A stretch of 64,000 bases of DNA from Alphaproteobacteria bacterium (GTDB taxonomy: Bacteria; Pseudomonadota; Alphaproteobacteria; Rickettsiales; UBA3002). The stretch is from NCBI GenBank assembly GCA_033763655.1, contig JANRKD010000026.1:25922-89921 (forward strand), given 5' to 3'. Under the pieces are notes generated by a model that saw only the letters and a list, made by a program, of their open reading frames with translations, searched no databases and was not told the origin of the DNA. The number at the start of each line of letters is the position of its first letter. The stretch's first letter is position 1. Positions 2,209-31,078 of this stretch are shown here, in pieces. The translations under genes and the position numbers were made by a program.

Positions 2209-2301
2209 GGAGGGGTGGCCGAGTGGCTGAAGGCGGCAGTTTGCTAAACTGTTGTAGGGGGTAAACCCCTACCGTGAGTTCGAATCTCATCTCCTCCGCC
2301 A
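2209..2301 (+). tRNA. tRNA-Ser (anticodon GCU), class II with long variable arm, CCA encoded
   Basis: GGAGGGGTGGCCGAGTGG...CAGTTTGCTAAACTG...GAGTTCGAATCTCATCTCCTCCGCCA. The 7-bp acceptor stem includes one G-U pair. The anticodon loop is TT-GCT-AA, the variable arm is GTAGGGGGTAAACCCCTAC, and the T-loop is GTTCGAATC. Confidence 0.95.
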
Positions 2302-2453
2302 TTAACCAAAGGCCACCACTGCGTGGCCTTTGGTTAATGAGGAGAATGATAGGTTTGCTCACGGTACGTGCGTTCGATTATTTACTTAGCGAGCATCGCG
2401 AGCTTAGGAAATAACGCGAAGCCCTTGCTGAGCATATCTCATCTCCTCCGCCA
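2296..2453 (+). repeat. 158-bp direct repeat, copy 1 (last 6 nt of tRNA-Ser + 15-bp-stem hairpin + spacer + 18-bp duplicate of the tRNA 3' end)
   Basis: CCGCCATTAACCAAAGGCCACCACTGCGTGGCCTTTGGTTAATGAGGAG...GCTGAGCATATCTCATCTCCTCCGCCA. ATCTCATCTCCTCCGCCA at 2436..2453 is identical to tRNA positions 2284..2301. A perfect hairpin lies at 2302..2337. Confidence 0.9.
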
Positions 2454-2820
2454 TTTTACAGCGAACCGCTGAAGTTCGCATAAGACCTCATTTGCAAGGT
2501 TCGAAAACAAAACCTGATCGGGCAAAAGCTATCAAAGAGGCTATGGATTTCCTTATGTTTTTAGGTTCGAATCTCAGTTTCAGAAATCAGAGAAATTTTG
2601 GTTTCATCGCGCAATTGACTTTTTCTTGTATTGAGGTATTGTGGTTTTGCTTTTGGAAAATAGTTTTCCGAAAGTGATATTACTGAAGAAACAAATTTGG
2701 TGTAGAGCACATCGAATTAGGAGAGATACCTTTTTCATATTAGCGCGTTTGCGCAGCTTTTCCCCTTACCAGTTTTGACAGTTTTATCTTTGTATAATTC
2801 ATTATATGGAGAGAAAAACC

Positions 2821-4398
2821 ATGTCTAACATTGCACTAGCTAACAATACCTCATCTTCTTACAGCTATAACAGCTCCCCCAATCCAGCAAAACTTATCGA
2901 GTCTCTACGTCACCTTGGCTACGATAATTACTCTGCGCTGGCAGACATAATCGACAACTCTTTTGATGCCGAAGCCAGTCACATCAAAGTGCTTATCCGC
3001 CAGAAGAATAAGCAGCAAGAAATCATTATCGCCGATAATGGCCACGGCATGGATGCCCATATTCTTGGTCAGGCTATTAGGTTGGGCTCTAACACTGAAA
3101 AAAATGCTGAAAGTGATTTAGGCAAATTTGGCATGGGGCTTTGCACTGCAAGCCTTTCTATCTGTCGCCAGACAACTGTAATTACAAAAACGGCTGATGG
3201 CAAAATGCTGAAAGCGGTGAATGATGTCGACGAAGTAATCCGACAAAATGCGTTCGTCAGCTATCTCGGTGAACCGACTTTCGAGGACAAAGCTTTATTT
3301 GAAGAACTTTTAGGAGACTCTGAGAGTGGAACTGTAATTGCCCTTCGTAAATGTGATAACCTCAGCCACAGCAGCAATACTACTAATTTTGCGAATCTGG
3401 CTATCAAGGAATTTGCCAGAATTTTCAGAAATTTCATCAAGGCTGGTATCAAGATTTCTGTAAACGACAAAGAATTATCTGCGATTGATCCATTGGAATG
3501 GGATGACCCGAAAACTGAGCACTATGACGATGGCTTTATCGAAATTGAAGTTGCGAACGAAGATGGAAAAACCGTTACAGAAAAAGTAGCGATTAAACTC
3601 GCTTTCCTAAAACCAAATGAAGAAAAAGGAGAAAAGGAGCGCGACTTTAACCAAAGAACTCAAGGCTTCTATGTGATGAGAAACAATCGCGAAATACTCA
3701 GCGCGAATGCACTTGGCTTGTTCATTAAACACAACTACCTCAACCGCTTTAGGGGCGAAATATCTTTTAGCGGCAATCTTGATAAGTTATTTGGCATCAA
3801 CTTCACAAAGAAGAACGTTGCCATGCATCAGTCGTTATCTGATAAATTAGCAGCTTATATTTCTCCTCAAGTGGCTTCTATTAAAAACAGGGAACAAAAG
3901 AAAACACGAAAAGAAACTCCAGAGAATATTACTGAAATTCATCAAGATGCTGCCAAAGAGATCGGCAAAAAAGCCAAGCTTTTAATGCGGCCTAAAGCCC
4001 CCAAAGAAAAGCGGGAATCTACTGGGGAAACTCCAGAACGCAAATCATCTGCTACTGAACCTAACCGCACCAGAGAGCCTGGTGAAAACAAGCAAGAGGG
4101 TTTTGCCGCTAATTGCGAGTTCAAGGCTGCCAGCATGGGAACTGGTGGCGTTATGTTTGACTCAGAACAGCGTGGTAGAACTACTGTGATTACGTATAAC
4201 TCCGATCATCCTTTCTATCAAAAATTTATTTTGGGTTACGGTGAAACAGATAGGGGTTTAGTTGCTGGCATAGACTATCTTATTTATAGCCTTGCATGCG
4301 CGGAACTAGCTCAGAATCTTGAAGAAGATGATGTGGCACAGCTTGTAAACAACTTCAAAACTATCGTATCTACTAACCTTAGAACACTATTGAGCTAA
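2821..4398 (+). CDS. GHKL-superfamily (MORC/HATPase_c_3-like) ATPase, orphan
   Basis: ORF 2806..4398. ATG 2821 (MSNIALANN) is preferred because GGAGAG lies 8 nt upstream. Bergerat-fold motifs are present: N box ALADIIDNSFDA (2941..2970), G1 DNGHGM (3034..3051) and G2 GKFGMG. A K/E/P-rich linker at about aa 365-440 is followed by a C-terminal domain. The gene is low-GC. Confidence 0.8.
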   Translation: MSNIALANNTSSSYSYNSSPNPAKLIESLRHLGYDNYSALADIIDNSFDAEASHIKVLIRQKNKQQEIIIADNGHGMDAHILGQAIRLGSNTEKNAESDLGKFGMGLCTASLSICRQTTVITKTADGKMLKAVNDVDEVIRQNAFVSYLGEPTFEDKALFEELLGDSESGTVIALRKCDNLSHSSNTTNFANLAIKEFARIFRNFIKAGIKISVNDKELSAIDPLEWDDPKTEHYDDGFIEIEVANEDGKTVTEKVAIKLAFLKPNEEKGEKERDFNQRTQGFYVMRNNREILSANALGLFIKHNYLNRFRGEISFSGNLDKLFGINFTKKNVAMHQSLSDKLAAYISPQVASIKNREQKKTRKETPENITEIHQDAAKEIGKKAKLLMRPKAPKEKRESTGETPERKSSATEPNRTREPGENKQEGFAANCEFKAASMGTGGVMFDSEQRGRTTVITYNSDHPFYQKFILGYGETDRGLVAGIDYLIYSLACAELAQNLEEDDVAQLVNNFKTIVSTNLRTLLS

Positions 4399-4408
4399 TA
4401 AATCTATC

Positions 4409-4435
4409 GAGGGTGGCTTGAAAAAAGTCACCCTC
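4409..4435 (+). terminator. Stem-loop just after the GHKL ATPase stop
   Basis: GAGGGTG-gcttgaaaaaagt-CACCCTC, 11 nt after the TAA. The tail aaatttctt is only weakly U-rich. Confidence 0.35.
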
Positions 4436-4578
4436 AAATTTCTTATGATTTCCGCCAGATAATGTAGTCCAAGGTTTTCTAGAAAGTTAGGGCGCATAAG
4501 CCGATAAACATAGGCCATATTCAACTTTACAATCGCTTGTCTGGTCTGCTCGCAGGTTCGCATAGCGTCTACAGTGTC

Positions 4579-4736
4579 CCGCCATTAACCAAGGGCCACC
4601 ACTGCGTGGCCTTTGGTTAATGAGGAGAATGATAGGTTTGCTCACGGTACGTGCGTTCGATTATTTACTTAGCGAGCATCGCGAGCTTAGGAAATAACGC
4701 GAAGCCCTTGCTGAGCATATCTCGTCTCCTCCGCCA
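4579..4736 (+). repeat. 158-bp direct repeat, copy 2 (att-like)
   Basis: Near-identical to 2296..2453, with a few substitutions (AAAGG->AAGGG in the hairpin, CTCATC->CTCGTC). It ends in ATCTCGTCTCCTCCGCCA (4719..4736). Confidence 0.9.
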
Positions 4737-4824
4737 CGGGGATGGGCGGCCATTTGTAATAATTCTGTAACAATCTCATGCTAGGATAAACATTATTGGA
4801 TAATGCTTAAAATACTGGATAAAT

Positions 4825-5799
4825 ATGGAAGCGACGATTTTAAATCATAATCAAGTCTTCAATACCTACGATGATCGTGAAGAGAAGCAGCTACAGATAT
4901 TTAAAGACTATGGCACGAAGACAGGATTGAGCGATCTGGCTATATTCCTTGGCGGCCGTTTGGGGTTGCCGCTTCGTAACCCAGATAAAACCAGCGATGG
5001 GCAACGCTCGGGTTTTGTCTACACTGCTTCGTCAGCTCGCGCAGAGATGTTCACTGTGCCAATAGGCAAGGTGAGCACAGTAGCCCCAACTGGTCGAGAA
5101 ACTCAAAGTGATTCGCAATCACGAACATGCGGCATACGCCTCGCCTTACCCCCCGAGGTAACATCTTCAATTTTGCCTGATAAAGAAAAAACGCATCCAA
5201 AAAATCAATCGCTAAGAATAGTTGAATACGGGGAATATCCGCAAAGCATAGCTTATGACAGCGAGGCGTTAGAGCATGAATTTCAGAAGCAACCTTTCGT
5301 CAAGACAGGTGCGCAATACACATTTGATGGCGAGGCGGCTGATGCGCACGATAAACCGTTTAACCCAATAAAATACGATGAATACGAGCATGACGACAAA
5401 CGTTATATCCGTGTAGAGGCGCGCCCAACGGTAAGCTATAAAGAGTGTTTGGATGGCCATTTGGAGAGCAACGCTATCCTATCAAACGGCCAGGAAGTGA
5501 AAGAGGGAGACATCGGCTGGATAGAAGTTCAGCCTGTCGAATGGCTCGCTGATCCATCAGGTTGGTGGGTGACAAAGCAAGGGTTGGTCGCTGGTGTTCA
5601 ATATGATGTCAAAAGAAAATATGACGGCAATTTTAATGAAACAAATGCAAATAAGTTCATCAACGAGGTGATGTTGAAAGAAATCCTGCCTGAAAGAGAT
5701 AGAGCCAAGATTGCTGGAACAATTCCACCCACTCGCGCTGATGGCAATAATTGGATTGACTCGCTTGGTGGTAGGTCTGGGCGTAAAATTGGCGAATAG
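4825..5799 (+). CDS. Hypothetical protein, paralog of 8445..9563
   Basis: 324-aa ORF in the second AT-rich segment. It shares multiple conserved blocks with ORF 8445..9563: YGTKTGLSDLA, DGQR.G.V..ASS, CG.R.ALP, VEYGEYPQ, DKPFN, YIRVEA.P, W.EVQP.EWL.DPSG, AGVQ.D, YDG.F..TN. Confidence 0.7.
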   Translation: MEATILNHNQVFNTYDDREEKQLQIFKDYGTKTGLSDLAIFLGGRLGLPLRNPDKTSDGQRSGFVYTASSARAEMFTVPIGKVSTVAPTGRETQSDSQSRTCGIRLALPPEVTSSILPDKEKTHPKNQSLRIVEYGEYPQSIAYDSEALEHEFQKQPFVKTGAQYTFDGEAADAHDKPFNPIKYDEYEHDDKRYIRVEARPTVSYKECLDGHLESNAILSNGQEVKEGDIGWIEVQPVEWLADPSGWWVTKQGLVAGVQYDVKRKYDGNFNETNANKFINEVMLKEILPERDRAKIAGTIPPTRADGNNWIDSLGGRSGRKIGE

Positions 5800-6376
5800 T
5801 TAACAAGCTATACATTAATGCTTAATCCTCATTTTTTACGCTTATTTAGCTGTCAAGAATACCATGCCTAGCGTAGTATTCATGACAGCAAAGTGGGTTT
5901 TGAGAGCCGCAGTTTGCCTCATGCCTTTTTATAACGAGAAGCGAGCGGTGTAACCAACAGACCGCCACCGTACGCCCTGCGGGCTTCGGGGGGCAGAGCG
6001 AGCGGTGTTTTTGGAGATAATAACTTCAAAGAAATTATTACCAAGAGGGTTCAGTCAATTAAGAATCACGCCATGCAGCTATCTCAAGGTGTGAACAACG
6101 TCTCGAGGTGTAACACAAAGATTTCATCGACACATTGCTCACCTAAGAATCAGAATCACACCGCCATAACCCGGCTCGCCGCCCTGCTTGACCTTCCGCC
6201 CGTTATCGGATAGGTTGGTTGCCCTGATGTCGTTGGTATGCTGGCGCGCGGCGCCACACCCTGCCACCGCTCAGCGGGTTCCCTTTCACAGGGTTCCGTT
6301 CCCGAAAGACGACCCTTAAAAAATCAAAAACACTACAGGCTGCCAGAGACAAGACCCCTACTACAGGAGGCACGTC

Positions 6377-18594: not shown

Positions 18595-18702
18595 CGCACG
18601 GCAATGGTGTGCGCGCCACGCCCTCCTGCGATGACGGAGAAAATCCGCCCCGTTTTTATCATGGCGCTTGCTATCGTCTGCAAATTACCCATCAATAGCC
18701 CC

Positions 18703-19629
18703 ATGGCCCTTTACACCCCCACCATCGCCGTGCTGCTGCCCTGCTATAACGAGGCGACGACCCTCGCGCAGGTGATTGCCGATTTCCGCGCCGCTCTGCC
18801 CGAAGCGCATATCTATGTGTTCGACAACAACTCGACGGATGATTCCGCCGCCATCGCCCGCGCGGCAGGCGCCATCGTCGCCCATGTACCGTTTCAGGGC
18901 AAAGGCAACGTCGTGCGCCGCATGTTCGCGGATGTGGACGCCGATATTTACGTCATGGCGGATGCCGATTCGACCTACGACGCCGCCCGCGCGCGTGAGT
19001 TGGTCACCCCCATCCTCAACGGCACCGCCGATACGGTGGTGGCCGTGCGCGACGGCGCCCGCAGCGCCTTTCCACCCGCACATGTCTTTGGCAACCGGCT
19101 TTTTAACGTCATCGTGCAACGCCTGTTCGGGCGCGGGCTGAAGGATATTTTCTCGGGCTACCGCTCGTTCTCGCGCCGCTTTGTCAAATCCTTCCCCGCG
19201 CATAGCGAGCGCTTCGAAATTGAAACCGAAATGAGCATTTTTATGCTCGAACAACGCATCCCAATGCTTGAAATCCCCATGCATTACGGCGAACGCCCGG
19301 CCGGCTCGTTCAGCAAGCTGCACACCTACCGCGACGGCGCGCGCATCATCGTCACCATCTTCCGCCTGTTCAAGGAGGCGCGCCCGTTTGCATTTTTCTC
19401 TCTCCTCGCCACACTGATGGCGCTGCTGAGCCTGCTGCTCGCCCTGCCCGTCATCCTCACCTGGATGGAAACGGGACTGGTCGAGCGGCAACCCACCCTG
19501 ATTTTATGCACCGGCATCGCCGTGCTCTCCGCCCTCACCTTTCTCGGCGGCATGATGCTTGACAGCCTGGCGCGCACCTACCGCGAAACGCGCCACCTGC
19601 GTTACCTCAACGTCCCGCCGCGCGGCTAA
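18703..19629 (+). CDS. GT2 polyprenyl-phosphate glycosyltransferase (GtrB/DPM1-like, two C-terminal TM helices)
   Basis: ORF 18604..19629. The ATG at 18703 (MALYTPTIAVLLPCYNE) is preferred. Motifs: DNNSTDDS and DADSTYD. C-terminal TM helices: FFSLLATLMALLSLLLALPVIL and LILCTGIAVLSALTFLGGMML. Confidence 0.85.
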   Translation: MALYTPTIAVLLPCYNEATTLAQVIADFRAALPEAHIYVFDNNSTDDSAAIARAAGAIVAHVPFQGKGNVVRRMFADVDADIYVMADADSTYDAARARELVTPILNGTADTVVAVRDGARSAFPPAHVFGNRLFNVIVQRLFGRGLKDIFSGYRSFSRRFVKSFPAHSERFEIETEMSIFMLEQRIPMLEIPMHYGERPAGSFSKLHTYRDGARIIVTIFRLFKEARPFAFFSLLATLMALLSLLLALPVILTWMETGLVERQPTLILCTGIAVLSALTFLGGMMLDSLARTYRETRHLRYLNVPPRG

Positions 19630-19632
19630 AGG

Positions 19633-20040
19633 ATGTCGCCCCTGCGCCATCGCGAATTCCTCCGCTTCTGCATGGTCGGCTTCCTCGCCTTTCTGGTGGA
19701 TTCGAGCCTGCTCGAACTGTTGGTATATACGGGGCTTACCGCCCCCGTCGCACGCGGACTCTCCATCGCAGTAGCGTTACAGTGCTCGTATTTCCTGCAT
19801 GGCGCATTCACTTTCCGCGCCCACGGAGGCTACAGCATCAAGAGCTGGATGAAATTCATGCTCGGCAACCTGATGGGCGCCGCGCTGAATTATGGCGTTT
19901 TCCTGCTCGTCCTCATGGCGCAGGTGGGTGCCGATGCCCGCATCGCGCGCCTTGCCGCGCTGCTGGCGGGCACGGCGGTGGCGCTGCTGTTTAATTACTG
20001 GGCAAGCCGCCGCTTTGTCTTTGCACGTCGGGAGCCATGA
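19633..20040 (+). CDS. GtrA-family small membrane protein
   Basis: 135 aa with 4 TM segments. It reads FLRFCMVGFLAFLVDSSLL near the N-terminus and ends FNYWASRRFVF. Confidence 0.85.
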   Translation: MSPLRHREFLRFCMVGFLAFLVDSSLLELLVYTGLTAPVARGLSIAVALQCSYFLHGAFTFRAHGGYSIKSWMKFMLGNLMGAALNYGVFLLVLMAQVGADARIARLAALLAGTAVALLFNYWASRRFVFARREP

Positions 20041-21956
20041 TGAAACCCATCCTTCGCCGCCTGCCGCCTGCCCTGCTCGCCACGTTGCTGATTAGCGTGC
20101 CGTACCTACTCTATGCGCTGAGCAAATGGCACGCGATGCCGCTGCATGATGGCATCCCCATCGGCCAGACCGACCCAGACACCTGGCTGCGCCTCACCCT
20201 TGTGCGCGACTGGCTGCTCGGCGGCGGCTGGTACAATCACTCCGTCGCCCACAGCAACGCACCGTGGGGCGGCATCAGCAGCCCGTGGACGCGCCCGCTC
20301 GACCTTGTGATTGCGCTGCTTGTACGCGCGCAGCCCGAGTCGGTGGAGCTTTCCGTACGCCTGATGCGCGCGTCACTGCTGCTGCCGGTACTGTGGATGA
20401 CCCTGCTGGTCGTAGGCATCCACCGCGCCATCCGCGCCCTGCTGCCGCTGCCTTCGGCCTACATCATGGCGGGGGCGCTTATCGCCACCCAGCCGATGAT
20501 GTGGAACTATTTCTCGCTCGGCAATGCCGACCACCACGCGCCGCTTTCCGTGCTGTTTATCTGGGTGATGGGCGGCATCCTCACACCACACCCTTCGCGG
20601 CGGCTGATGCTGTTGACCGGAATGCTGCTCGGCCTGCAACTCTGGATCAGCGTCGAGGCGATGGTGCTCATCGCGGCTATCTACCTGTGGGTTGGGCTGG
20701 GCTGGCTGCGCGGCGAGACTGCCAAAGCCGTGGCACTGGCGCAGTTGACAACGGGCGTCGCACTCACCGCCCTACTCGCTGTGATGATTGAACGCCCGGT
20801 CGCGGCATGGCTGACCCCGGTTTACGACAGCATTTCCGTCGTGCATGTCATCGCACTGCTGCTCTGCGCCGTGCTCGCCGCCCTGCTGCATCATGTGCCG
20901 GTGCGCCACCTGCGCGGGCGGCTGGTGCTGGCCGCCACAGGGGGCGGCGCGCTGCTGGGCGGGCTGCTGCTGACCTATCCGCTGCTGCTGCACGGGCCGA
21001 TGGTCGGGGTGGAACCGTTCATCCACAGTGATTTCCTGCCGCATATCAGCGAAGCCAAACCGTTCTACAAAATTTCACCCCTACTGCTGATGGCGGCGAC
21101 GCTAACCCCGCTGCTTGGGATAATCCTCTGCCTCGCGCCATGGATTCGCCCCGACCGCGCCTTCTACCCTCGCGAACATTCCGCCCAACTGGTATTTTTC
21201 CTCGGCGTGACCCTGCTGCTCTATTATTTTCAGCAGCGCTGGAGCTATTATATGCTGCCGCTGGCCGTGGTGGCGCTCGCGCCACTGCTGGGCGCACTGT
21301 TCACGCCCGAGCATCCGCATGTGGCGACGCGCTGGCCGGCCAACCTGCTGGCGGGCCTTCCCCCCACCACTCAGATGAAACGCCGCCTGCCGGTTATCCT
21401 CGCCCTGCTCGGCGCGCCGTTCATGCTGCTGCTACAGGGTGCCGCCCCGAGCGTGACGGATAAATTATCGCCGCTGACGAGCACCGCTTCCCCCACCGCC
21501 GACGCACAGGCGAAACAGCGCGACGCCTGCTACCGCAAAGCCCGCGTCCTCATCCGCAGCGGCGCACTGATGCGCGCCCTGCCCGACACGCCGCTGACCT
21601 TCCTCGCGCCCACCGACCTTGGCGCGGAGCTGCTGTTCTTCACCCCGCAGCGGATTATTGCTTCGAATTACCACCGCGAAGGAGCTGGCATCCGCTATGT
21701 CTGGGAGGCGGATACCATCGCTGAGCCATCCTCTTTACATGCTTATTTAAAGAAACGCACGGTGGAGGCCCTGCTGCTCTGCCCGAAAGTCGGCCCCACG
21801 AAAGATAGCCTGCTGCAGGCCTATGTGCAGGGCGCGCCGCTACCCGCATGGCTGAAGCCGGTGCCCTACACCCTGCCACCCTCTCCCACCACGGAGAAGG
21901 ATGCTTCCGCGCCCCCGGCCCCCGACCCGCTGCTCCTGCGCATCGTGGCTCCGTGA
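20037..21956 (+). CDS. Large polytopic membrane protein, putative GT-C-fold glycosyltransferase
   Basis: The ATGA start/stop overlaps gtrA. 639 aa with more than 10 hydrophobic segments. The first loop carries GQTDPDTWLRLTLVRDW (a DxD-type acidic motif as in STT3/AglB/ArnT first loops). No WWDxG motif is seen. The C-terminal soluble domain is about 170 aa. Confidence 0.55.
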   Translation: MMKPILRRLPPALLATLLISVPYLLYALSKWHAMPLHDGIPIGQTDPDTWLRLTLVRDWLLGGGWYNHSVAHSNAPWGGISSPWTRPLDLVIALLVRAQPESVELSVRLMRASLLLPVLWMTLLVVGIHRAIRALLPLPSAYIMAGALIATQPMMWNYFSLGNADHHAPLSVLFIWVMGGILTPHPSRRLMLLTGMLLGLQLWISVEAMVLIAAIYLWVGLGWLRGETAKAVALAQLTTGVALTALLAVMIERPVAAWLTPVYDSISVVHVIALLLCAVLAALLHHVPVRHLRGRLVLAATGGGALLGGLLLTYPLLLHGPMVGVEPFIHSDFLPHISEAKPFYKISPLLLMAATLTPLLGIILCLAPWIRPDRAFYPREHSAQLVFFLGVTLLLYYFQQRWSYYMLPLAVVALAPLLGALFTPEHPHVATRWPANLLAGLPPTTQMKRRLPVILALLGAPFMLLLQGAAPSVTDKLSPLTSTASPTADAQAKQRDACYRKARVLIRSGALMRALPDTPLTFLAPTDLGAELLFFTPQRIIASNYHREGAGIRYVWEADTIAEPSSLHAYLKKRTVEALLLCPKVGPTKDSLLQAYVQGAPLPAWLKPVPYTLPPSPTTEKDASAPPAPDPLLLRIVAP

Positions 21957-24539: not shown

Positions 24540-26234
24540 CTACTTTTCAGAGAGCGCCCGGATGCGCCGACTGATTTCTACCACTGCACTGGATGCTTGC
24601 TGGGTATTGGATGAGATTTCCTTAGTGACTGCCGTTTGTTCCTCGATTGCCCCGGCTACACCCGTGACATATTGGCTCAGCTGCCCGGATGCCTCGACAA
24701 TCTCTCCAATACTGCCTGCCACCTCGGAGGAAATCGCCTGAACAGAGGAAATTTCATTGGCGATATCGTCGGTCGCTTTAGAGGTTTGAGTGGCCAAACT
24801 TTTTACTTCACTGGCAACAACGGCAAACCCCTTACCAGCTTCGCCAGCCCTTGCCGCTTCAATGGTTGCATTCAGTGCCAGCAAATTCACTTGCCCTGCA
24901 ATACTGCGGATTAAATCCACGATATTTCCCATAGAAACCATTGTAGCAGACAAGCGGTCACTGGCAGCCCCCGACGACTGCGACTTCTGCATAATATTGG
25001 TCGTCGCCTGCTGCGATAACGACATATTCTTGCTGATTTCACCTACCGAGGCAGTCATTTCCTCCGTGGCTGCAGCCACGTTTTGCACCTGCTGGCTGGT
25101 CACATCCGCAAGCTCAACCGTTTTCATGAGCTCCGTCATATCCGTGGCAAACTTCACAACTTTAAAGGGAGTGCCGTTCATATCGAGGATAGGATTGTAC
25201 GAAGCCTGAATATAGACTTCCCTCCCCCCCTTACCAATGCGCTTGTATACGCGTGAGTCAAACTCACCACGGTTGAGCCTTGCCCAGAATTCTTTATACT
25301 CGGAACTCTGCGCGTAAGCAGGCTCCGCGAACATGCTGTGATGCTTTCCTCGCACCTCAGGCAAAGTGTACCCCATCACCTTGAGGAAATTCTCGTTGGC
25401 CGTGATAATCGAGCCATCAAGGTTAAACTCTATCACCCCCTGAACTTTGCCGATAGCATCAAGCTGCCCCCGAACATCCGCATTGGCTAATTTCTGCGCC
25501 GTCACATCCGTCGCGTATTTTACAACTTTGAAAGGCTTGCCATCCATATCGAGAATGGGGTTATAGGAAGCCCGAAGCCAGACTTCTTTGCCACCTTTGC
25601 CCAGACGCTTATATTCCCGCGAGTCAAACTCACCACGGTTGAGCTTTGCCCAGAATTCTTTATACTCGGCACTCTGCGCGTAAGCAGGCTCCGCAAACAT
25701 ACTATGATGTTTTCCCTGAATTTCTGCAAGGCTATACCCGATAGTCTTCAGGAAGTTTTCATTGGCGGTAATGATAGTTCCATCCATGTTAAACTCAATC
25801 ACCGCCTGCGATCTGCCGATGGCCTTGACTTGCCCAAGGGCGTCGGCATCCATCAGTTTTTTCTTCGTGATATCTGTGGCGATTTTTATGACTTCGTAAG
25901 GCTCGCCATTGCGATTAAGAACGGGATTATAGGAAGCCTGAAGCCAGACTTCCTTGCCGCCTTTACCAAAGCGCTTATATTCCCGTGAATCGAACTCTCC
26001 GCGGCGGAGCTTTTCCCAAAACTGGCGATATTCTGCGCTCTGCGCATAGGCAGAGTCGACAAAAATGCTGTGATGTTTCCCGCGAATCTCGTCGAGCGTG
26101 TAGCCGATCACCTTTAGGAAGTTTTCATTGGCGGTAATGATGCTTCCGTCCATGTTGAACTGAATCACCGCCTGCGATTGCTCGATTGCATCGAGCATTG
26201 CCACACATTTAGCATTGGAGGAAAAAGGAAACAT
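24540..26234 (-). CDS. Soluble methyl-accepting chemotaxis protein with three tandem PAS domains
   Basis: 564 aa with no TM segment. Three repeats of about 122 aa read [25 protein letters not shown]......S.EY..FW..L.RGEF. The signalling domain contains [33 protein letters not shown] is lower than the flanks (by eye). Confidence 0.9.
25105..26202. repeat. Three tandem 366-bp units inside the MCP gene (the PAS triplication)
   Basis: CACCACGGTTGAGC(C/T)TTGCCCAGAATTCTTTATACTCGG.ACTCTGCGCGTAAGCAGGCTCCGC occurs at 25265 and 25631 (offset 366 bp). A third, more diverged unit lies near 25997. Confidence 0.75.
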
Positions 26235-26642
26235 ACAGCTACCATACTCCCGCTAGAGTTGTCCCATGATTTATACCCAGAACCATAGGTTTTTCGAGCG
26301 GGATTATGCCTGCCCCCCCGCCCTTTACAACCATGAAGGTTATTCCATTTAGCTAATGTCAGGCTATGTAGCATATGCGCAACAGGCACATCCTGCGCCC
26401 CTCACCAAACATGCCACATAGACCGTTAAAGAAATGGCTATGCCAGATTGTCCATTAAAAAAACATGTTTCTGGCTACGAATAGGCACTCTTCAAATACC
26501 TAGTAATCATAAGAATCAGCCACAGGTTTTTTTTGCCACCATTCTTCCCGATTTTATACGCATTCTATCCCCCGCTTAAGGTAACTGGACAACCCCTCCC
26601 ATCTATGCCAAAAGGCAACCTCGCAAAAACGTGAGGTTTCGC

Positions 26643-27938
26643 ATGCAATCGGTCGTAGTTGTCGGCTCCCAGTGGGGCGATGAAGGCAAAGGCAAAGTCG
26701 TTGACTGGCTCTCCGAACGGGCGGATGTCATCGTGCGCTTTCAGGGCGGCCATAATGCGGGCCATACGCTGGTGATCGACGGCGTGACGTACAAACTCAG
26801 CCTGCTGCCCTCGGGCGTGGTGCGCAAAGGCAAAACCAGTATCATCGGCAACGGCGTGGTCATCGACCCCTGGGCCTTGTTCGCTGAAATCGACAAAGTG
26901 CAGAAACAAGGCGTCGAAGTCTCGCCTGATACCTTAAAGATCGCCGAGAACGCCCCGTTAATCCTGCCCATTCACCAGATGCTCGACGCCGCCTCCGAAG
27001 CCCTACGCGGCACCAACAAAATCGGCACCACCGGGCGCGGCATCGGCCCAGCCTATGAGGACAAGGTGGGACGTCGCGCCATTCGCGTCTGCGATCTGGC
27101 CAACCCCGACACGCTGAAAGGCAAGCTGGCCGATCTGGTCGCGCACCACACGCCGATCCTCAAAGCCTCGGGTGGGGCGGATGCCGATATGGACGCGATG
27201 CTGGCCTCGCTGCGCGACGTGGCCGAAAAAATCCTGCCCTATGCAACGCCCGTGTGGCGCCTGCTGGCCGAATACCGCGAACAGGGCAAACGCATCCTCT
27301 ATGAGGGCGCGCAAGGCATGATGCTTGATGTCGATTATGGCACCTACCCGTTCGTGACCTCGAGCAACACGCTGGCAGGCGCGGCCACGCTTGGCTCCGG
27401 CTCGGGCATCCATTCCATCGGCTATGTGCTGGGCATCACCAAGGCCTACACTACCCGCGTTGGCAGCGGGCCGTTCCCGAGCGAACTGACCGATGCCACC
27501 GGCGAACATATCGGCGAGCGCGGGCACGAATTCGGCACCGTCACCGGGCGCAAACGCCGCTGCGGCTGGTTCGATGCGGTGCTGGTGAAACAGGCGGTCA
27601 CCGTCGGCGGTATTAACGGCATTGCCCTGACCAAGCTCGACGTGCTCGACGGGCTGGCGGAGCTGAAACTCTGCATTGGCTACGACATCAACGGCACGAA
27701 ATACGACTATCTGCCCGCCGCAAGCGAGCTTCAGGCCGCAGCAAAACCGATTTATGAATCCATCGAAGGCTGGAGTGAATCGACCCGCGGCGCACGCAGC
27801 TGGGCCGAACTTCCGGCCACGGCCATTAAATACATTCGCCGCATCGAAGAGTTAATCGGCTGCCCGGTCGCACTGCTTTCGACCAGCCCCGACCGCGAAG
27901 ATACCATCCTGGTGAAAGACCCGTTTTTAGGGCTTTAG
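26643..27938 (+). CDS. purA: Adenylosuccinate synthetase
   Basis: ORF 26631 (GTG). The ATG at 26643 ([18 protein letters not shown]) is preferred because GAGG lies 6 nt upstream. Motifs: [33 protein letters not shown]. Confidence 0.95.
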
Positions 27939-28076
27939 CAGCGCCACATAAAGGCGGCTTAACCAATGCACGGTTGAGAATGGCATGAAGTTTGCCTATA
28001 ACAGGTGTGGATTATACTATTCCGTTTAAGAACACGCCTGTCCAGAAGTTGGAGGGCGCTACGCGTACAGGAACCT

Positions 28077-30173
28077 ATGGCCAAGGCCCAGCAGATAACC
28101 GATGTCGAGATTCCGCTGATCGAAGAACAGGTCGATACCGGCCTGCAGCCGCTGCTTGAGAGTTACCAGACGAGCTATGTCCCCGGCGGTGAGAAGAAAG
28201 ATGACCTGCTGGGCCGTTTCACCCTCTACCCCACGCGCCCCCTGCCCGAATTCAGCCACACCTATGCCACCGCCTACGAAGCGCGCGACGACTTCAACCC
28301 CAACCGGCTCGCCTATGCCATGGTGTGCGACAACAACATGCCCACACGCCTGCAGGCGATTACAGAACTCAACACCTTCACCCACGCGCACCTGACGCCG
28401 CTGCTCGGCTCGGGCACCGTCAACTGCTCGCATCTGGGCGAGGCGCGCACAGTGCTGTTCCTCGAACGCCCGCGCGGTGTTCGCCTGTCAGATAGCATCA
28501 AAAACCAATTGCGCCTGCATGAACACAAAGTGATTGATTATGTGCTGCAGCCCGCCCTGAAAGCGCTGCTGGCCATGCGCGAGAAAAAAATCAGCCACGG
28601 CCATATTCACCCCGGCAATTTCTTTGTCAGCGAAACGCCGCAGCTGGGCGAGTGCTTCTCGGCCCCCTGCGGCACACAGGGCCACTATCTCTACGAACCG
28701 CTGGAACGGCTGATGGCCACCCCGCTCGGGCGCGGCGAAGCGACCGAAAAATCCGACATCTATGCGCTGGGCATCCTCGCCTTCGAGCTGATGTATGGGC
28801 TGGAGCGCATCAAATCCATCCCGAGGGACGCCTTCATCGAGCGCATTATCAGCCTTGGCACCTACCATTTATTTGCCACCAACCGCGAATTTTCCGACAC
28901 ATTCCAGGATTTTTTCCGTGGCATCCTGAATGACAACCCCACCGAACGCTGGGGGCTTGACCAGCTCGCGCAGTGGATTAGCGGCAAACGCTTCAATATG
29001 ATTGCACCGAGCGTACCCAAGGAGGCTTCCCGCCCGATCGACTTTGTCGGCCAGAACTTTTTCTCGCGCCGGATGCTGGCCCACGCCATGCACACCCATT
29101 GGCGCGAGGCCCTCAAGGATGTTAAATCCATGCGCGTCGATCGCTGGTGCGAAATGAGCCTGCACCGCCCCGAGCTGGGCAGCAAACTCGAGCGGCTGAT
29201 GCGCCTTTCGGGCAATGCCTCGACCGATGCGCAGATGCACGACACCATGACGCGGGTGATTACGATTCTCGACCCGAGCGGTCCCTTGCGTTCACGCACG
29301 CTATCCCTCCGGCCCGATGCGATCGGCCCATCACTGGCAGAGGCCATGCAGCATGAAGGCCCCGAGCTGTCGCAATTATTGAGCTTTATCGAAGGCGATC
29401 TCGGCAATTTCTGGGCCGAACAGGCCGACAGCAACAAAAGCCCCGAGATTTCCATTGCCGTGTGGCGCCTGCAACGCGCCCGCTCGCAGTTGAAAAACCC
29501 GGCCCTTGGCTTCGGGCTGGAGCGGGTGCGCTACGAGCTAAACCCTTCGCTCAGTTGCCAGAGCCCCCTGCTCAAACCCTACCATGTGATGAACGCACTC
29601 GATGTCTTAAAGACGCTGGATGCGCTGGCGCCCACCCTTGGCCCCGACACCAGCCTGGTGGATCGCGACATTGCCGCTTTCCTCGCCAGCCGGATTGATA
29701 TGGGCAAGGAAATCCGCATCCTCGATCTGGCCAGCATCCCCGCCCTCGCCGGCAACGAAGAGCTTATCATGCTCAAGCTGCTGGCCAAGGCGCAGCAGAA
29801 ACATCCACGGATGCCGCTGGTCGGCCTGTGCACCTGGGCCGCCATGCGCATCGAGAAAATGATCGACACCATCCATAACCGCATCATCCGCAAGCGCCTG
29901 AAACTGCAACTGAAGAAACTGGCGCAGACCGGCAGCCTGCACGAGGTGATGGGCGCCATCATCAATATCGACGTGTCCCTCCACGATTACGATGGATTTA
30001 TCAAGGCCATCGCCCTGCACCAGATTAACCACGAACGCATGAAACACCTGCAGAGCGAGGATATCCTCAACTACAAGGCCCGCCGCGCCGGCGGGAAAAT
30101 GGCGATGATTATCAGCTATATCGCTCTGGCGGTTACCTTCTACATCAGCCTCACCGACATTGTGGGATATTAA
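28077..30173 (+). CDS. Protein-kinase-fold protein with degenerate catalytic motifs (putative pseudokinase), large helical middle region, C-terminal TM anchor
   Basis: ORF 28005..30173. The ATG at 28077 (MAKAQQITD) is preferred because AGGA lies 5 nt upstream. The kinase subdomains are recognisable: HGHIHPGNFF (28596..28619) in place of HRDLKPxN, no DFG (LGECF), YEPLE for APE, SDIYALGILAFELMYG, and NPTERW. The C-terminal helix reads MAMIISYIALAVTFYISL. Confidence 0.75.
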   Translation: MAKAQQITDVEIPLIEEQVDTGLQPLLESYQTSYVPGGEKKDDLLGRFTLYPTRPLPEFSHTYATAYEARDDFNPNRLAYAMVCDNNMPTRLQAITELNTFTHAHLTPLLGSGTVNCSHLGEARTVLFLERPRGVRLSDSIKNQLRLHEHKVIDYVLQPALKALLAMREKKISHGHIHPGNFFVSETPQLGECFSAPCGTQGHYLYEPLERLMATPLGRGEATEKSDIYALGILAFELMYGLERIKSIPRDAFIERIISLGTYHLFATNREFSDTFQDFFRGILNDNPTERWGLDQLAQWISGKRFNMIAPSVPKEASRPIDFVGQNFFSRRMLAHAMHTHWREALKDVKSMRVDRWCEMSLHRPELGSKLERLMRLSGNASTDAQMHDTMTRVITILDPSGPLRSRTLSLRPDAIGPSLAEAMQHEGPELSQLLSFIEGDLGNFWAEQADSNKSPEISIAVWRLQRARSQLKNPALGFGLERVRYELNPSLSCQSPLLKPYHVMNALDVLKTLDALAPTLGPDTSLVDRDIAAFLASRIDMGKEIRILDLASIPALAGNEELIMLKLLAKAQQKHPRMPLVGLCTWAAMRIEKMIDTIHNRIIRKRLKLQLKKLAQTGSLHEVMGAIINIDVSLHDYDGFIKAIALHQINHERMKHLQSEDILNYKARRAGGKMAMIISYIALAVTFYISLTDIVGY

Positions 30174-30175
30174 TC

Positions 30176-30700
30176 ATGAGCGACGACGCCGGGGCCGATA
30201 AAAAAGAGAAGAAAAAAGGCACGCTCTCCACCGCCGGCGGACGAGGGAAAATGCGTGGCAAAAACAAGCTGCTGCTCATTCTCTTCAGCCTGATGATGAT
30301 GGGGCTGCTGCGCACGGGCTTCGTGTTCTTCGTCATCGGCATGCTGCCTTGCATTGTCGCCTATTATATGGATGTCTCCAAGCACCAGTACACATTCAAG
30401 AGCGTCTTTGCGGCCAATCTTGCAGGCATGATGCCGTTCATTACCCGCATCATCCATGCAGGCCCGTCGAGCAGCCTGCTGCAGGAAATTATGGGTAACA
30501 GCACCAGCTGGATTATCATTTATGGCTCGGCGCTGATCGGCTGGCTGCTGGTCAAAGCCTGCCCGGTGCTGGCGCAGATACTGGTCACCGGCGTCCACCA
30601 GACACAATTTTCGCGCTACGACCGGCTACAGAAAAAGCTGGAGAGCGAATGGGGCGACGAGGTGAAGCAATTCAGCGGCGACCACCACGCCGAGCATTAG
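30176..30700 (+). CDS. Hypothetical small membrane protein (about 4 TM), translationally coupled to the kinase-like gene
   Basis: The ATG lies 2 nt after the TAA of the upstream gene. A basic N-terminus (KKEKKKG..RGKMRGKNK) is followed by LLLILFSLMMMGLL, FVFFVIGMLPCIVAYY, FAANLAGMMPFI and WIIIYGSALIGWLLV. Confidence 0.65.
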   Translation: MSDDAGADKKEKKKGTLSTAGGRGKMRGKNKLLLILFSLMMMGLLRTGFVFFVIGMLPCIVAYYMDVSKHQYTFKSVFAANLAGMMPFITRIIHAGPSSSLLQEIMGNSTSWIIIYGSALIGWLLVKACPVLAQILVTGVHQTQFSRYDRLQKKLESEWGDEVKQFSGDHHAEH

Positions 30701-30789
30701 CGCATTGTTTTTGGGGTTAAGCCTCTCCATTTTTCGTCATGGCGAGCGAGTGCGCGGCAATCCGGTTGGCCACACAGATCGTTCCTTTG

Positions 30790-30951
30790 CTCCCCCCTTG
30801 CGGGGGAGCGGGCGTTGCACTTCGCAACGCCGTGGGGGGCAATTGCACGACCGCCCGGTTATGCAACTTTTACCATGCCTAGCGCGTCGCTGAAAATCCC
30901 CCCACCGAAACGCTTGAAGAGAGCGTTTCGACTCCCCCGCGAGGGGGGAGT
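30790..30951. repeat. Cluster of four GC-rich stem-loops (REP-like) in the 370-bp gap before mnmA
   Basis: CTCCCCCC-ttg-CGGGGGAG (30790..30808); GCGTTGC-acttc-GCAACGC (30812..30830); CGAAACGCT-tgaagag-AGCGTTTCG (30906..30930); ACTCCCCC-gcga-GGGGGGAGT (30931..30951). Confidence 0.8.
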
Positions 30952-31078
30952 GGGCGGGAGTGCCTCAGGCGCGGGCGCTGGAAGTGAAGGCGAGATGGCT
31001 TCCGCCTTTCAGCGTGCGCGGCGCGGCACCGCCAGCGCCTCGCAATTAATGACGGGAAATGCCTGAACGTAAAATGCG

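Follow-up and report, generated by a model that had tools for sequence, protein, structure and literature searches.

What can a protein do that has kept the fold of a Hanks-type protein kinase and exchanged its catalytic residues, and what does the small membrane protein encoded directly behind it contribute? The question is raised by two adjacent genes in a stretch of 64,000 nucleotides (nt), called the window in the following, from Alphaproteobacteria bacterium (assembly GCA_033763655.1, contig JANRKD010000026.1, forward-strand positions 25,922 to 89,921). The larger gene encodes a protein of 698 amino acids (aa), the smaller one a membrane protein referred to here as the partner. With moderate confidence, the pair is regarded as a non-catalytic, conserved and vertically inherited inner-membrane complex of two proteins; any specific client or signal is proposed with much less confidence than this general picture. 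The coordinates of the features are summarized in Table 1. The open reading frame (ORF) of the larger gene can be extended upstream to a GTG (28005-30173); the ATG at 28077 is backed by the length of about 698 aa found in nearly all of the roughly 120 relatives listed.

The kinase fold had been recognized in an earlier reading of the DNA made without database searches (the sequence-only reading), and it is borne out by both profile searches performed here. Pfam Pkinase (PF00069) matched aa 122-299 at profile positions 70-259 with 39.9 bits (E=4e-10; gathering score 31.7). A family profile built from 20 diverse members of the pseudokinase family retrieved the twitchin and titin kinases from the PDB at E=5e-13 and PknB at 2e-10. 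Judged by these scores, the kinase homology of the 698-aa protein lies well beyond chance. All motifs quoted in the sequence-only reading were found at the places it had given, with AYAMVCD at aa 79-85 and the others as listed in Table 1. Conservation was counted by column in a MAFFT alignment of 369 full-length family members. The structural residues of the C-lobe are kept, namely the His of HRD (His174, 86%), the Glu of APE (Glu210, 88%), the helix-F Asp227 of subdomain IX (99.7%), Arg291 (97%) and Trp292 (98%). With the Pkinase gathering score passed and these landmarks present, the domain belongs to the Hanks-type superfamily. The N-terminal extension in front of it is kept only in the close clade and is missing from the aligned relatives of the Azospirillaceae type; the tblastn matches of distant relatives begin at about residue 43 of the pseudokinase.

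Most of the catalytic positions are lost. The profile alignment sets the catalytic loop of the family on twitchin IVHLDIKPEN and thereby assigns to the window protein a retained HRD His, His176 at the position of the catalytic Asp, His178 at that of the Lys, and a retained Asn181, so that the replacement of both Asp and Lys by His, as originally proposed, holds. It also extends to the family: an Asp is present at the HRD position in only 8 of the 369 members, where Ala, Asn, His, Arg, Ser, Gly or Cys is found elsewhere, and the catalytic-loop Lys is represented by Arg (the commonest), Asn or His. In the N-lobe of the window protein the glycine-rich loop GxGxxG is absent, the matching stretch PLPEFSHTYATAYEA containing no Gly, and Val83 stands where the beta3 Lys belongs. 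That no VAIK lysine is present had been noted before; the position is occupied by Val, Ile or Leu in 357 of the 369 members (97%) and by Lys or Arg in none. Positions 1-69 of Pfam Pkinase were unmatched in the window protein, its N-lobe being too diverged for alignment to this profile.

The absence of the DFG motif, also claimed in the sequence-only reading, was upheld in part. The motif is degenerate (LGECF), yet its acidic residue seems to have been kept across the family: position 192 is Glu in 292 and Asp in 70 members (98% acidic), and Glu in the window protein. The alignment to twitchin pairs Glu192 with the DFG Asp, whereas that to titin is off by 2 residues. The following residue, Cys193, is conserved as well (Cys in 297 of 369). 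The proposed alignment check confirmed the beta3 Lys and the HRD Asp as absent; no intact equivalents that had been misplaced were found at these positions. A pseudokinase is defined by the absence of at least one of VAIK-Lys, HRD-Asp and DFG-Asp (PMC12599244; bacterial serine/threonine kinase (STK) atlas preprint). With two of the three gone family-wide, the proteins are pseudokinases by this sequence definition.

The kinase domain is followed by a long helical region and a single C-terminal transmembrane helix, in agreement with what had been described from the sequence. An AlphaFold2 (AF2) model of aa 296-698 (403 residues), built with a 22-sequence alignment, reached a predicted local distance difference test score (pLDDT) of 83.6 and a predicted template modelling score (pTM) of 0.69. 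It is all-helical, with about 22 helices, the last of which (model residues 366-401) runs into the membrane anchor. Foldseek of this model against the PDB gave a best match of only E=0.97, and a sequence profile of the domain against the PDB gave only a weak coiled-coil-type match (HP0242, E=0.004). Pfam scans of 22 family members showed nothing recurrent over the domain, and neither the domain nor the partner has a Pfam or NCBIfam family. The most invariant residues of the family are located here: W357 (100%) and R483, Y486, C494 and D529 (all >99%). D399, R405, GFGxER (478-483, including E482), Q573, G619 and D637 are also strongly conserved, and His531 is conserved to about 90%. The helical domain is under strong purifying selection and may be the functional core of the protein, not a mere linker.

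A search of 1.84 billion representative proteins with the profile of the helical domain gave 1332 hits (clusters at 50% identity), 762 of them below 1e-30. Among the best 150 of the 1332 hits, the full-length proteins (about 700 aa) carry the domain at about 300-700, after the kinase-like part, and about 16 shorter entries look like fragments. Because the full-length hits listed carry both parts, the helical domain appears to be tied to the pseudokinase. At its end, a conserved GG(K/R)xA motif directly precedes the tail anchor, which is the sole hydrophobic segment of the 698-aa protein in a Kyte-Doolittle scan; a hydrophobic C-terminal tail is found in all aligned relatives. As this only hydrophobic segment lies at the extreme C-terminus, the pseudokinase is tail-anchored and otherwise cytoplasmic.

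A rather unlikely explanation, overlapping with that of a non-catalytic complex, is that the helical domain is itself a new enzyme, or a sensor of a small molecule or metal, acting through Cys494, Asp529, Glu482-Arg483 and Tyr486, and that the dead kinase is its regulatory or docking appendage. The highest conservation of the protein falls in this domain, its AF2 model is confident and matches no known fold, and it is fused after the kinase-like part in the full-length proteins among the best hits, all of which would suit such a role. All-helical domains with invariant polar residues can, however, equally be protein-protein interfaces. A classical Cys-His-Asp triad is doubtful, since His531 falls short of the conservation of the other residues.

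The protein could also be an active unconventional kinase, or a kinase-fold enzyme of other chemistry (AMPylation as in SelO, glutamylation as in SidJ), that works through relocated residues. Besides the acid at the DFG position, the catalytic-loop Asn is retained in 70% of the members, and for these two reasons residual metal or nucleotide binding may persist. Arg91 at the start of helix C is near-invariant (93%), the catalytic-loop Lys is most often replaced by Arg, and the activation segment, normal in length, still has its P+1 loop. The few members with Asp at the catalytic position (8 of 369) form an Arenibaculum/Skermanella subclade with the loop HGDIRPTN (L044 Arenibaculum pallidiluteum; P0406 and P0411 Skermanella), still without a beta3 Lys; the Asp is either a relic of an active ancestor or a reversion. 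WNK, SelO and SidJ are examples of kinases considered dead by their motifs and later proved active. Two of these three are listed in a review (PMC12599244). An enzyme of this kind is nevertheless improbable here: the glycine-rich loop is lost, Pfam positions 1-69 find no counterpart, the Lys position is hydrophobic in 97% of the members, and any of A, N, H, R, S, G or C occurs at the position of the catalytic base, a lack of constraint unlike an active site. SelO and SidJ, moreover, retain the ATP-binding Lys. Their motifs are WHLK and VAVK (PMC12599244).

The second gene encodes the small protein with a basic N-terminus and four membrane helices that the sequence-only reading had placed 2 nt after the stop codon of the first, and each of these features was recovered. 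Its N-terminus is basic and disordered, with a net charge of +5 over the first 30 residues, and the AF2 model (pLDDT 74.5) has helices at residues 28-45, 48-65, 72-95 and 109-159. The third helix is only weakly hydrophobic; the fourth is predicted to reach well into the cytosol and to end in an invariant (E)WG motif. Invariant in 75 partner orthologues are P58, D66, N81 (inside the third helix), G122 and W159-G160 (at the cytosolic helix end). No match to the partner was obtained in Pfam, among PDB sequences or with Foldseek.

The two genes were followed through a sample of 82 related loci, and the conservation of the downstream ORF with the large gene was evident. In 77 of them the next gene downstream, in the same orientation, is a partner homologue. 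Of the five exceptions, L024 and L066 stop at a contig edge, and in L054, L059 and L075 the downstream sequence is present and no partner homologue was detected. Stop and start overlap by 4 nt (ATGA/GTGA; a distance of -4 nt) in 15 of 78 loci, and about 50 of the 78 have distances from -4 to +15 nt; the 2-nt junction in the window is consistent with translational coupling of the two genes. The pair stays intact where all other neighbours change, as in Nitrospirillum and Niveispirillum, which lack purA at this place, and in loci that have the flanking genes on the opposite strand. It is very unlikely that the adjacency is a matter of conserved gene order only, with the partner acting independently of the pseudokinase. 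The order hisZ-purA-pseudokinase does show that synteny occurs here even among genes without an obvious shared function, but the pair persists where every other neighbour differs, the overlap or close spacing of its stop and start codons is conserved, and the partner family was retrieved solely from the same lineage, often from the same contigs.

The 82 loci comprise uncultured metagenome-assembled genomes (MAGs) labelled Rickettsiales or Alphaproteobacteria (47-78% identity) and, with 26-30% identity, members of the cultured Rhodospirillales (Nitrospirillum, Niveispirillum irakense, Oleisolibacter, Arenibaculum, Rhodocista, Thalassobaculum, Dongia and Magnetovibrio). Skermanella and many species of Azospirillum came to light in a further search. 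An alphaproteobacterial pair was also found in a MAG labelled Anaerolineae (L040), which has hisZ and purA upstream as well, and in one labelled Candidatus Symbiobacter (L069); both are probably mis-binned contigs and not a sign of the family outside Alphaproteobacteria. All-against-all clustering of the neighbouring ORFs in 80 loci showed purA and hisZ to recur, joined in the close clade by an oppositely oriented mnmA; prfB and one 370-aa ORF are syntenic in certain lineages only. The gene hflKC, a neighbour of hisZ-purA in other Proteobacteria, is not present upstream in the window.

In 46 loci purA is the gene immediately upstream of the pseudokinase gene, and the median distance between the two is about 90 nt. 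In the window the gap is 138 nt, and a consensus scan found no terminator-like site on its + strand. Terminator-like hairpins are equally rare on both sides of the pair: 2 of 46 gaps behind purA and 2 of 75 sites downstream of the partner gene contain one. Pseudokinases more similar to the window copy tend to come with a more similar purA (Spearman 0.85 for the identities) and a more similar partner (0.77), which fits vertical co-inheritance of the pair with the core genome. The pair is a core-genome, single-locus and vertically inherited unit of Alphaproteobacteria of the Azospirillum/Rhodospirillales type. It is not decaying, with intact full-length ORFs in 77 or more loci and 1332 clusters at 50% identity.

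It is hardly credible that the pair forms a module of anti-phage defence or abortive infection, or an effector that disrupts membranes like MLKL, with a kinase-like sensor coupled to a membrane protein: weak PADLOC matches were obtained (mad6 at E=2e-12, also MkoA and PD-T4-6; NCBIfam MAD6 at 26.6 bits) and the combination of pseudokinase, helical domain and membrane partner loosely recalls MLKL, but the cut-off for MAD6 is 460 bits, the matches are confined to the generic kinase core, the core synteny with hisZ, purA, mnmA and prfB extends across families, divergence follows purA, and no mobile-element genes flank the locus in the window. Membership in the defence systems MADS (MAD6), PD-T4-6 and MkoA was rejected on account of the scores under the cut-offs and the core-genome locus.

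For the two-protein membrane complex, the following mechanism is proposed. The large subunit is cytoplasmic and held on the inner membrane by its C-terminal tail anchor. Its kinase domain, which has lost the glycine-rich loop together with the beta3 Lys and the catalytic Asp, is most likely non-catalytic and would serve as a binding module or a switch, not as a phosphotransferase, a role suggested by the intact P+1/APE substrate-binding platform. The helical domain between kinase and anchor would probably be the effector or ligand-binding part. Translational coupling would supply the partner in a fixed ratio; its helices probably pack on the tail anchor and present the invariant cytosolic (E)WG to the large subunit. 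What we infer from these data is that the two proteins physically associate, that catalysis is absent and that the domains share the work as described. The recurrent order hisZ-purA-pseudokinase is the sole functional lead and gives a hint of adenine-nucleotide metabolism. On a more speculative level, and with low probability, the pair could form the core of an undescribed lineage-wide membrane machine, in which the helical domain senses or catalyses through its Cys, Asp, Glu-Arg and Tyr residues, the dead kinase gates it via a ligand or peptide, possibly a signal related to adenine nucleotides, and the four-helix partner with its invariant membrane-embedded Asn transmits or executes the output.

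Several points weigh against the proposed complex. Contact between the pseudokinase and the partner is deduced from sequence and gene pairing. Two metal-ligand positions appear to survive (Asn181 in 70%, Glu/Asp192 in 98%), Arg91 is near-invariant at the start of helix C, and the Arenibaculum/Skermanella subclade has HGD with its Asp; the pseudokinase may bind nucleotide or metal, or may even support unconventional catalysis. The structural model covers aa 296-698, and the N-lobe was assessed from its sequence only. Finally, no conserved third gene was found in the 80 loci besides hisZ, purA and mnmA.

Table 1. Features of the pseudokinase-partner locus, in window coordinates
Feature	Position	Strand	Basis
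purA (adenylosuccinate synthetase), conserved neighbour upstream	26631..27938	+	ORF; Pfam Adenylsucc_synt in related loci
Gene of the tail-anchored pseudokinase, 698 aa, stop codon included	28077..30173	+	ORF listing; length of relatives; Pfam Pkinase match
N-terminal extension, aa 1-45 (PLIEEQVDTGL...)	28077..28211	+	two alignments; tblastn
Degenerate Hanks-type kinase domain, aa ~46-300, C-lobe canonical	28212..28976	+	Pfam; profile against PDB; column counts
Catalytic-loop remnant HGHIHPGN, aa 174-181	28596..28619	+	alignment to twitchin IVHLDIKPEN
LGECF in place of DFG, aa 190-194	28644..28658	+	twitchin alignment; column counts
P+1/APE-like YEPLE (aa 206-210, Glu210) to subdomain IX SDIYALG (aa 226-232, Asp227)	28692..28772	+	alignments; column counts
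Subdomain XI NPTERW, aa 287-292	28935..28952	+	motif position; conservation
All-helical C-terminal domain, aa 301-671	28977..30089	+	AF2 model; Foldseek; conservation
Transmembrane tail anchor, aa 672-697, one residue after	30090..30167	+	Kyte-Doolittle scan; AF2 model
Stop-start junction TAATCATG, 2-nt gap after the TAA stop	30171..30178	+	sequence
Gene of the partner membrane protein, 174 aa	30176..30700	+	ORF
Terminator-like hairpin followed by a T-run, 12 nt past the partner stop, possible operon end	30712..30729	+	consensus scan only

Other features of the window were recorded as well. Between the stop codons of the partner gene (30700) and mnmA (31079), the intergenic region 30787-30956 contains the palindrome CTCCCCC-(4 nt)-GGGGGAG twice, at 30790-30808 and 30932-30950. 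Both GC-rich hairpins give sub-threshold matches to Rfam whalefall-1 on opposite strands (21-24 bits; gathering score 37), and the pair of hairpins is probably an intergenic element of the repetitive extragenic palindromic (REP) type. A chemoreceptor gene with three near-identical tandem PAS-type repeats (24540-26234, - strand) lies between hisZ and purA in the window; most related loci have no gene between hisZ and purA. At 18604-21956 (+ strand) a family-2 glycosyltransferase gene is followed by one for a protein of about 590-640 aa without a Pfam match, and members of the close clade likewise have this second unannotated pair upstream of hisZ (L001 355-3152, L004 1-2400). A tRNA-Ser(GCT) at 2209-2301 is followed by a stretch of low G+C content up to position 6000 (0.44-0.46 versus about 0.60), with genes for a 530-aa GHKL ATPase (HATPase_c_3, 2806-4398) and a 324-aa protein without a Pfam match (4825-5799). 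The region 2209-6000 looks like a tRNA-associated genomic island and is possibly a defence module. A second stretch of low G+C content is located at 38001-40000 (0.47 versus about 0.60 elsewhere in the window).

In RefSeq and UniProt, members of the family are named "serine/threonine protein kinase" or "non-specific serine/threonine protein kinase", labels that the catalytic residues of the family do not back and that would mislead kinome and phosphoproteome analyses. With generic database names of this kind and no domain family for the helical part or the partner, the earlier statement that no function is assigned to the two-gene unit still applies. Literature searches for a pseudokinase in Alphaproteobacteria or Azospirillum, or for a tail-anchored one, yielded no study of a homologue. 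The few characterized bacterial pseudokinases include EssB/YukC, the MviN domain, SidJ and SelO. As a group, bacterial pseudokinases are largely unexplored experimentally (PMC12599244).

Seven bacterial pseudokinase families have been catalogued: ActPs1-3, GLW, CP1, DYD and DLHK (PMC12599244; bacterial STK atlas). The window family fits none of them. GLW, which is proteobacterial and has a C-terminal transmembrane region, is the nearest by description (bacterial STK atlas). In GLW the motif of that name replaces HRD, and poly-Leu (LLLL/W) replaces the beta3 Lys (PMC12599244), whereas the window family has a loop of the type HGHIHPGN, HGAIRPTN or HRAIRPDN ((S/V)HG or HRA), A-x-V-C at beta3, and an apparently retained acid at the DFG position. 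As neither the GLW nor the poly-Leu motif occurs in the window family, membership in GLW was rejected. ActPs3, the MviN (MurJ) domain of Mycobacterium tuberculosis, is likewise a dead kinase domain on a membrane protein; its pocket is filled by hydrophobic residues, which prevents ATP binding, and its role is that of a docking module (PMC12599244). It differs in being actinobacterial, in its fusion to a 14-helix MurJ flippase and in a large deletion of the activation loop, while the window pseudokinase has an activation segment of normal length, keeps the P+1 loop and has a separate small membrane partner. The best-scoring solved structures, titin and twitchin, are CaMK-like kinases, and titin kinase has EFG, with Glu for the DFG Asp, like the window family. 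These eukaryotic kinases are active and keep both the Lys and the catalytic Asp, and the likeness is one of the generic kinase core without a specific relationship.

The closest functional analogue is EssB/YukC of the Firmicute type VIIb secretion system (T7SSb). EssB has its transmembrane helix in the middle of the protein, an extracellular C-terminal domain and a place in a T7SS gene cluster. Like the window protein, EssB/YukC is a Hanks-type pseudokinase with degraded catalytic motifs, a degraded glycine-rich loop and one membrane helix; EssB/YukC acts as a non-catalytic scaffold with small membrane proteins (PMC12599244). In the window pseudokinase, by comparison, the helix is at the extreme C-terminus and the helical domain of about 370 aa is cytoplasmic and novel. 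No secretion genes were found among the neighbours in the window or the related loci, where hisZ, purA, mnmA and prfB occur instead, and no significant sequence relation to EssB was seen beyond the kinase fold. Membership in EssB/YukC was rejected, the transmembrane segment occupying aa 672-697 of 698 and a type VII secretion cluster being absent.

The pair represents an undescribed, widespread family inside a known class, the bacterial Hanks-type pseudokinases. The family comprises at least 1332 clusters at 50% identity and ranges from uncultured lineages to the tractable plant-associated genera Azospirillum and Nitrospirillum. As the pair is single-copy and core, a knockout in Azospirillum would be a direct route to new alphaproteobacterial cell biology. 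Compared with the known systems, two orphan parts are new: the cytoplasmic helical domain of about 370 aa, which has no structural relative, and the obligate small membrane partner.

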